Shown here: piece after piece, positions 63,844 through 64,000 of the stretch | How positions within the stretch are numbered: position 1 is the first letter of the stretch | How the letters are laid out: each line of letters begins with the position of its first letter | Assembly: GCF_003334355.1 (NCBI RefSeq) | Contig: NZ_QOWP01000021.1 | Reading direction: 5' to 3' (one strand) | Length of the DNA: 64,000 nucleotides | Origin: Escherichia coli | GTDB taxonomy: Bacteria > Pseudomonadota > Gammaproteobacteria > Enterobacterales > Enterobacteriaceae | Made by a program: the position numbers and the translations under genes | The notes under the pieces: generated by a model | Database searches by the model: none | What the model saw: only the letters and a program-made list of their open reading frames with translations | What the model was told of the DNA's origin: nothing

Positions 63844-63924
63844 CTATAAGTTAGACGGAAAAGACTATATTTAAGATGTTTTGCCTGAAAAGTGAGCGAA
63901 CGATAAAGTTTTTATATTTTTCGC

Positions 63925-63952
63925 TTGTCAGGCCGGAATAACTCCCTATAAT
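63925..63952 (+). promoter_or_regulatory. rRNA-operon P1-like promoter (rrnG-type) with AT-rich UP element upstream
   Basis: TTGTCA (63925-63930), 16-nt spacer, TATAAT (63947-63952), GC-rich discriminator GCGCCACC; AT-rich tract at about 63885-63920; an rrn operon follows clpB in K-12 (recollection). Confidence 0.6.
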
Positions 63953-64000
63953 GCGCCACCACTGACACGGAACAACGGCAAACACGCCGCCGGGTCAGCG

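Follow-up and report, generated by a model that had tools for sequence, protein, structure and literature searches.

Almost certainly, the 3′ end of the analysed window (a 64,000-nt stretch of Escherichia coli DNA, one strand of contig NZ_QOWP01000021.1) carries rrnG P1, the upstream, major growth-rate-regulated sigma-70 promoter of the rrnG operon (16S, tRNA-Glu, 23S, 5S); the promoter lies between clpB and rrsG. The anatomy of the promoter, its identity with K-12 rrnG and with rrnB P1, and the rRNA operon lying downstream were all directly observed. The traits published for rrn P1 promoters, namely tandem P1 and P2, UP element, discriminator, FIS sites and a Glu-tRNA in the operon, match those described here, with candidate sites in the case of FIS, and further support the assignment (PMC4696680). 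Coordinates are collected in Table 1.

Table 1. Features of the clpB-rrnG region in the window and, past its right edge, in the closest genome (NZ_CP025842, locus L001; adding 56299 to a locus coordinate gives the window coordinate)
Feature	Window or window-equivalent position	Strand	L001 position	Description
clpB, 857 aa	61236-63809	+		Annotated clpB in the 99.9%-identical L001 and in K-12
clpB intrinsic terminator	63812-63844	+		Stem 63819-63825/63830-63836, TTCG loop 63826-63829, T5 63837-63841
Candidate FIS site, centre -112	63842-63856	.		GTCTATAAGTTAGAC; score 12/13
Candidate FIS site, centre -91	63863-63877	.		GACTATATTTAAGAT; score 10/13, weak alone (background 2.6 per 100 positions)
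Candidate FIS site I, centre -71	63883-63897	.		GCCTGAAAAGTGAGC; score 12/13
UP element (-59 to -38)	63902-63923	+		GATAAAGTTTTTA distal + TATTTTTCG proximal; putative alpha-CTD contact region by analogy with rrnB P1
-35 hexamer	63925-63930	+		TTGTCA; same in K-12 rrnA, rrnB, rrnC and rrnG P1
-10 hexamer	63947-63952	+		TATAAT; 16-bp spacer from -35; invariant in 7/7 K-12 rrn P1
Discriminator (-8 to -1)	63953-63960	+		GCGCCACC; 8 bp, 6/8 G+C
Predicted P1 start A 63961 and first 40 nt of rrnG leader	63961-64000	+		Predicted from identity with rrnB P1
P2	64043-64070		7744-7771	TTGACT-16-TATTAT; 118 bp past P1, 43 bp past the edge
boxB hairpin	64082-64105		7783-7806	
boxA	64108-64120		7809-7821	TGCTCTTTAACAA; +148
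boxC	64135-64142		7836-7843	TGTGTGGG
Mature 16S	from 64252		from 7953	+292, 252 bp past the edge; Rfam SSU 1578.8 bits
tRNA-Glu	outside window		9666-9741	
23S	outside window		9926-12829	Rfam LSU 2875 bits
5S	outside window		12924-13039	Rfam 5S 92.8 bits
kgtP	outside window		13365-14663	

The core promoter and its start site

A first-pass annotation of the window had described a TTGTCA-16-TATAAT pair with a GC-rich discriminator, and both were found as described, with the hexamers at 63925-63930 and 63947-63952 and GCGCCACC directly after them. The pair (63925-63952) scored 11/12 against the consensus and is thus a near-consensus sigma-70 promoter core with a sub-optimal 16-bp spacer. Alignment showed that the GCGCC prefix of the discriminator, present in the window, is invariant across the seven K-12 P1s.

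The start site, like the UP element and FIS contacts and the regulation considered below, was derived from the literature. In rrnB P1 the discriminator occupies -8 to -1, transcription starts 9 bases past the -10 hexamer and the UP element lies at -60 to -40 (PMC7822876). We assigned the probable +1 of the window promoter to A 63961, 9 bases past the -10, because of its base-for-base identity with rrnB P1, whose +1A is 9 bp downstream of the -10.

We also asked how often such hexamers occur. With both strands and spacers of 16-18 bp considered, the 64-kb window contains exactly one pair scoring at least 11/12, for a mean of 0.97 (sd 1.25) in dinucleotide-preserving shuffles of the window. The bare hexamer match is therefore no more than chance in 64 kb; hexamer statistics were dropped as promoter evidence and the promoter call leans on sequence identity and context. 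These counts, about one pair per window of this size, are what would be expected if the site were a fortuitous sigma-70-like pair in AT-rich intergenic DNA, devoid of promoter function. We nevertheless consider the probability of such a coincidence to be negligible: 77 bases are identical to rrnB P1, which is among the best-studied bacterial promoters (PMC7822876), the position is conserved in 5,423 of 5,426 E. coli genomes, and an rRNA operon is located downstream with the canonical spacing.

Two minus-strand signals in the same region were rejected as most likely due to chance: a weak promoter-like site (63891->63864, 9/12) and a 44-aa GTG-initiated ORF (63851-63985), both within the AT-rich DNA of the FIS/UP region and the core of P1. 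Neither place is annotated in K-12. An Rfam search of positions 55000-64000 detected no RNA family in the promoter stretch, as expected for a promoter, and only the Phe leader and RyfD upstream of it.

Identity with K-12 rrnG and comparison with the other rrn operons

The sequences preceding each of the seven K-12 MG1655 rrn operons were aligned to the window. From -165 to +40 it is identical to K-12 MG1655 rrnG save for a single base, 63997 (+37). Two segments could be distinguished in this alignment. Within the core (-36 to +40), every base matches K-12 rrnA, rrnB and rrnC P1. The flank (-165 to -37) is the same as in K-12 rrnG only and differs from the other six operons. Since the seven operons are unrelated in sequence upstream of -37, the window flank points unambiguously to rrnG. 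An rRNA-type P1 after clpB, as originally proposed, was recovered with the core of rrnA, rrnB and rrnC and the flank of K-12 rrnG.

The single difference, at 63997 (+37), is an A in the window, in K-12 rrnA, rrnB and rrnC and in the closest E. coli genomes, and a G in K-12 MG1655 rrnG. Together with the core common to rrnA, rrnB, rrnC and the window, this A could suggest that the promoter is not rrnG P1 but P1 of one of those three operons, or the product of recombination between operons. Such an origin is highly improbable: from the UP element back through the FIS region and the terminator to clpB, the sequence beyond -37 is that of K-12 rrnG and unlike any other operon, and those of the closest genomes that have A at +37 show the rrnG arrangement downstream, with the tRNA-Glu spacer and kgtP. 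The A at +37 is hence a common allele of rrnG itself. The polymorphism might be the mark of gene conversion between rrn operons, which would be short at most and lie in the shared leader.

The K-12 rrnG promoter is the same element as the window P1. Its neighbours are also shared, with clpB and its terminator upstream and, in homologous genomes, P2, boxBAC, rrsG-gltW-rrlG-rrfG and kgtP downstream.

Comparison with rrnB P1, the model rRNA promoter, and with rrnA and rrnC P1 showed a common TTGTCA, 16-bp spacer (GGCCGGAATAACTCCC), TATAAT, discriminator GCGCCACC and sequence from +1 (ACTGACACGG...). A FIS-like site is located at -71 in both rrnB P1 and the window rrnG P1. The two promoters differ in UP element sequence (CGATAAAGTTTTTATATTTTTCGC in rrnG versus CAGAAAATTATTTTAAATTTCCTC in rrnB), in the position of the upstream FIS-like sites (about -91 and -112 in the window versus -102 and -143 in rrnB) and in the upstream gene (clpB versus murI).

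The P1 promoters of rrnD, rrnE and rrnH are less alike. They share TATAAT, a GCGCC-type discriminator, the AT-rich -40 to -60 segment and a distance of about 285-292 nt from +1 to 16S, but their -35 hexamers (TTGTGC, TTGCGG and TTGTCT) differ from that of the window. Their discriminator is GCGCCTCC, their leaders differ, and the initiating nucleotide of rrnD is a G.

UP element and candidate FIS sites

The AT-rich tract that had been noted upstream of the hexamers was borne out: the A+T content from -60 to -37 is 75%, versus 52% for the whole window. This tract contains the UP element, the sequence of which is specific to rrnG and matches K-12 rrnG exactly. For rrnB P1, the distal UP subsite has been placed at -59 to -47 and the proximal subsite at -46 to -38 (bioRxiv 10.1101/2020.02.05.936344; PMC7822876).

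FIS sites were searched with a crude 15-bp core (G at -7, C at +7, R/Y at ∓3, Y/R at ∓4 and an A/T centre; maximum score 13). Two candidates, centred at -71 and -112, reached 12/13, for a background of 0.148 per 100 positions at scores of at least 12. The third candidate (-91) is spaced 20-21 bp from the other two, which is suggestive only. Of the seven rrn P1 regions of K-12, six scored at least 11/13 exactly at -71. As a control, the same crude scan recovered the rrnB sites at -71, -102 and -143, which we take to be the footprinted FIS sites I-III.

Three footprinted FIS sites have been described for rrnB P1 (bioRxiv 10.1101/2020.02.05.936344). For rrnG, three FIS sites were reported earlier, and gel shifts indicated cooperative binding of FIS to an rrnG promoter fragment (PMC4696680). 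By their sequence, the -91 and -112 candidates of the window may likewise be FIS sites and be bound by FIS.

The upstream clpB gene and its terminator

The distance from the clpB stop codon (TAA, 63807-63809) to +1 is 152 bp. A hairpin with a GC stem follows the stop codon, for which RNA folding gave -20.3 kcal/mol (z = -5.8); none of 200 shuffles was as stable. The first-pass annotation had placed the promoter immediately after the clpB terminator. The terminator is indeed upstream, but the wording was loose: 83 bp separate its T-tract from the -35 hexamer, and this gap contains the FIS-like sites and the UP element. In two runs of a consensus terminator scan the clpB terminator was missing, although direct folding showed a strong hairpin. 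The scan thus has a blind spot for this terminator.

Since clpB is co-oriented with rrnG and its stop codon is so close to +1, we considered whether transcription of the rrnG leader could arise mostly by read-through from clpB instead of initiation at P1. We regard this as practically without probability: the strong intrinsic terminator, with its stable hairpin and T5 tract, stands in between, P1 has the full architecture of core, UP element and FIS-like sites, and most rRNA transcription in growing cells has been assigned to P1 (PMC4696680).

The -112 FIS candidate (63842-63856) abuts the clpB T-tract (63837-63841). Because of this adjacency, its sole support, we can imagine that FIS occupancy there or the heavy polymerase traffic at P1 might influence clpB termination or 3′-end formation, or that clpB read-through might influence P1. 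Such coupling is very unlikely; if it existed, an rRNA promoter would be tied to the gene of a heat-shock chaperone.

Two further observations concern clpB. Codon 785 (63588-63590) is AGT (Ser) in the window, in place of the CGT (Arg) of K-12 and strain 720632, which results in ClpB R785S (...QLKRLYK[R>S]LEERGY...). When 61 bases around this codon were used as a query, 5,425 complete E. coli genomes matched, none of them at 100% identity. R785S is a private variant, a laboratory mutation or a sequencing error. At the other end of the gene, the RyfD sRNA (61117-61255, plus strand; Rfam RF02768, 125.3 bits) lies just 5′ of clpB and overlaps its start (61236); it is likewise annotated in K-12.

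The rrnG operon beyond the window edge

The first-pass annotation had stated that rrnG follows clpB in K-12, had supposed that the window ends in the rrn leader, and had proposed extending the sequence downstream in search of P2, boxA and 16S. The statement agrees with the K-12 MG1655 annotation, in which the order is clpB, rrsG, gltW, rrlG, rrfG and kgtP. The supposition proved correct as well: the last base of the window is +40 of the P1 transcript, and P2 comes 43 bp further on.

We carried out the extension in the closest genome (NZ_CP025842), which is 99.9% identical. P2, boxA and 16S were all found there, as part of a complete rRNA operon. In this homologous genome, P2 comes 118 bp after P1 and is followed by boxB, boxA, boxC and 16S. 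Every rrn operon is known to have two tandem promoters, P1 and P2, spaced about 120 bp from each other, and rrnG belongs to the operons with a Glu-tRNA in the spacer (PMC4696680). The traits specific to rrnG were likewise observed: the operon is located between clpB and kgtP and carries a single tRNA-Glu in its 16S-23S spacer and no distal tRNA, both in the closest genome and in K-12, clpB being in the window itself. In the closest genome, the internal transcribed spacer of rrnG (16S-23S) also gave an Rfam match to StyR-44 (locus positions 9819-9918, 105.3 bits) just 5′ of the 23S gene.

Conservation among E. coli genomes

A query of 701 bp, with its end at the edge of the window, was compared by megablast with 5,426 complete E. 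coli genomes. It found matches in all 5,426, the best being 99.9% identical. Synteny from clpB to P1, scored as at least 80% of the query in one place under a clpB annotation, was observed in 5,423 of them. The query matched a median of 4 places per genome, because four operons have the -36 to +40 core in common.

Other features of the window

Apart from the rrnG region, the minus strand of the window carries the tmRNA gene ssrA (39566-39928), which is bordered by a variable genomic island (window positions 15000-39999), at least 80% of which is covered in only 23 of the 5,426 complete E. coli genomes. The island encodes a ypjA/EhaD-type autotransporter, a primase-helicase, a DEAD/DEAH helicase and an alpha-amylase-family protein. 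Its RNA genes are a C4 antisense RNA (30594-30681, minus strand), isrK (30750-30827, minus strand) and a tRNA-Met (19293-19368, plus strand). Closer to clpB, the Phe leader (pheL attenuator; 57686-57811, minus strand; Rfam RF01859, 132.3 bits) precedes pheA. It is ordinary, and its position fits the K-12 gene order tyrA, pheA, pheL, raiA, bamD, rluD, yfiH, clpB.

A model for rrnG P1 activity

Because the -36 to +40 segment is 100% identical to that of rrnB P1, the mechanism described for the latter can be carried over to the window promoter. In rrnB P1, the UP element contacted by the alpha C-terminal domains (alpha-CTD) raises transcription more than 30-fold, while the discriminator and scrunching destabilise the open complex and speed promoter escape, an instability exploited by DksA and ppGpp (PMC7822876). 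From its upstream sites, FIS touches alpha-CTD and activates P1, which is dominant in fast growth, P2 providing basal expression (PMC4696680).

In a model of this kind, RNA polymerase holoenzyme would bind the near-consensus -35 and -10 hexamers of the window promoter on their sub-optimal spacer, and two alpha-CTDs would bind the A+T-rich UP element (-59 to -38). FIS, at about -71 and further upstream, would touch alpha-CTD and thereby increase transcription. The G+C-rich 8-bp discriminator and the scrunching-dependent start 9 bases past the -10 would then give rise to a short-lived open complex. Hence P1 output would be expected to track the concentration of the initiating ATP, and DksA together with ppGpp would shut P1 down. 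Judged by sequence identity, the scrunched open complex, its short life and its sensitivity to the initiating nucleotide and to DksA/ppGpp are thus predicted properties of this copy of P1. The transcript initiated at A 63961 would leave the window at +40, pass P2 and the boxB, boxA and boxC antitermination signals and reach 16S at +292.

Implications

The rrnG P1 promoter is already known and is ordinary textbook biology. Few bacterial promoters have been studied as intensively as the rrn P1 promoters, and this copy adds nothing new to the knowledge of them. No gene is to be called in 63845-64000. As the edge lies at +40, P2, the antitermination boxes and the rRNA genes are not to be expected in the window. 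The importance of the finding is for annotation only: the right edge of the window cuts through the control region of the rrnG operon.
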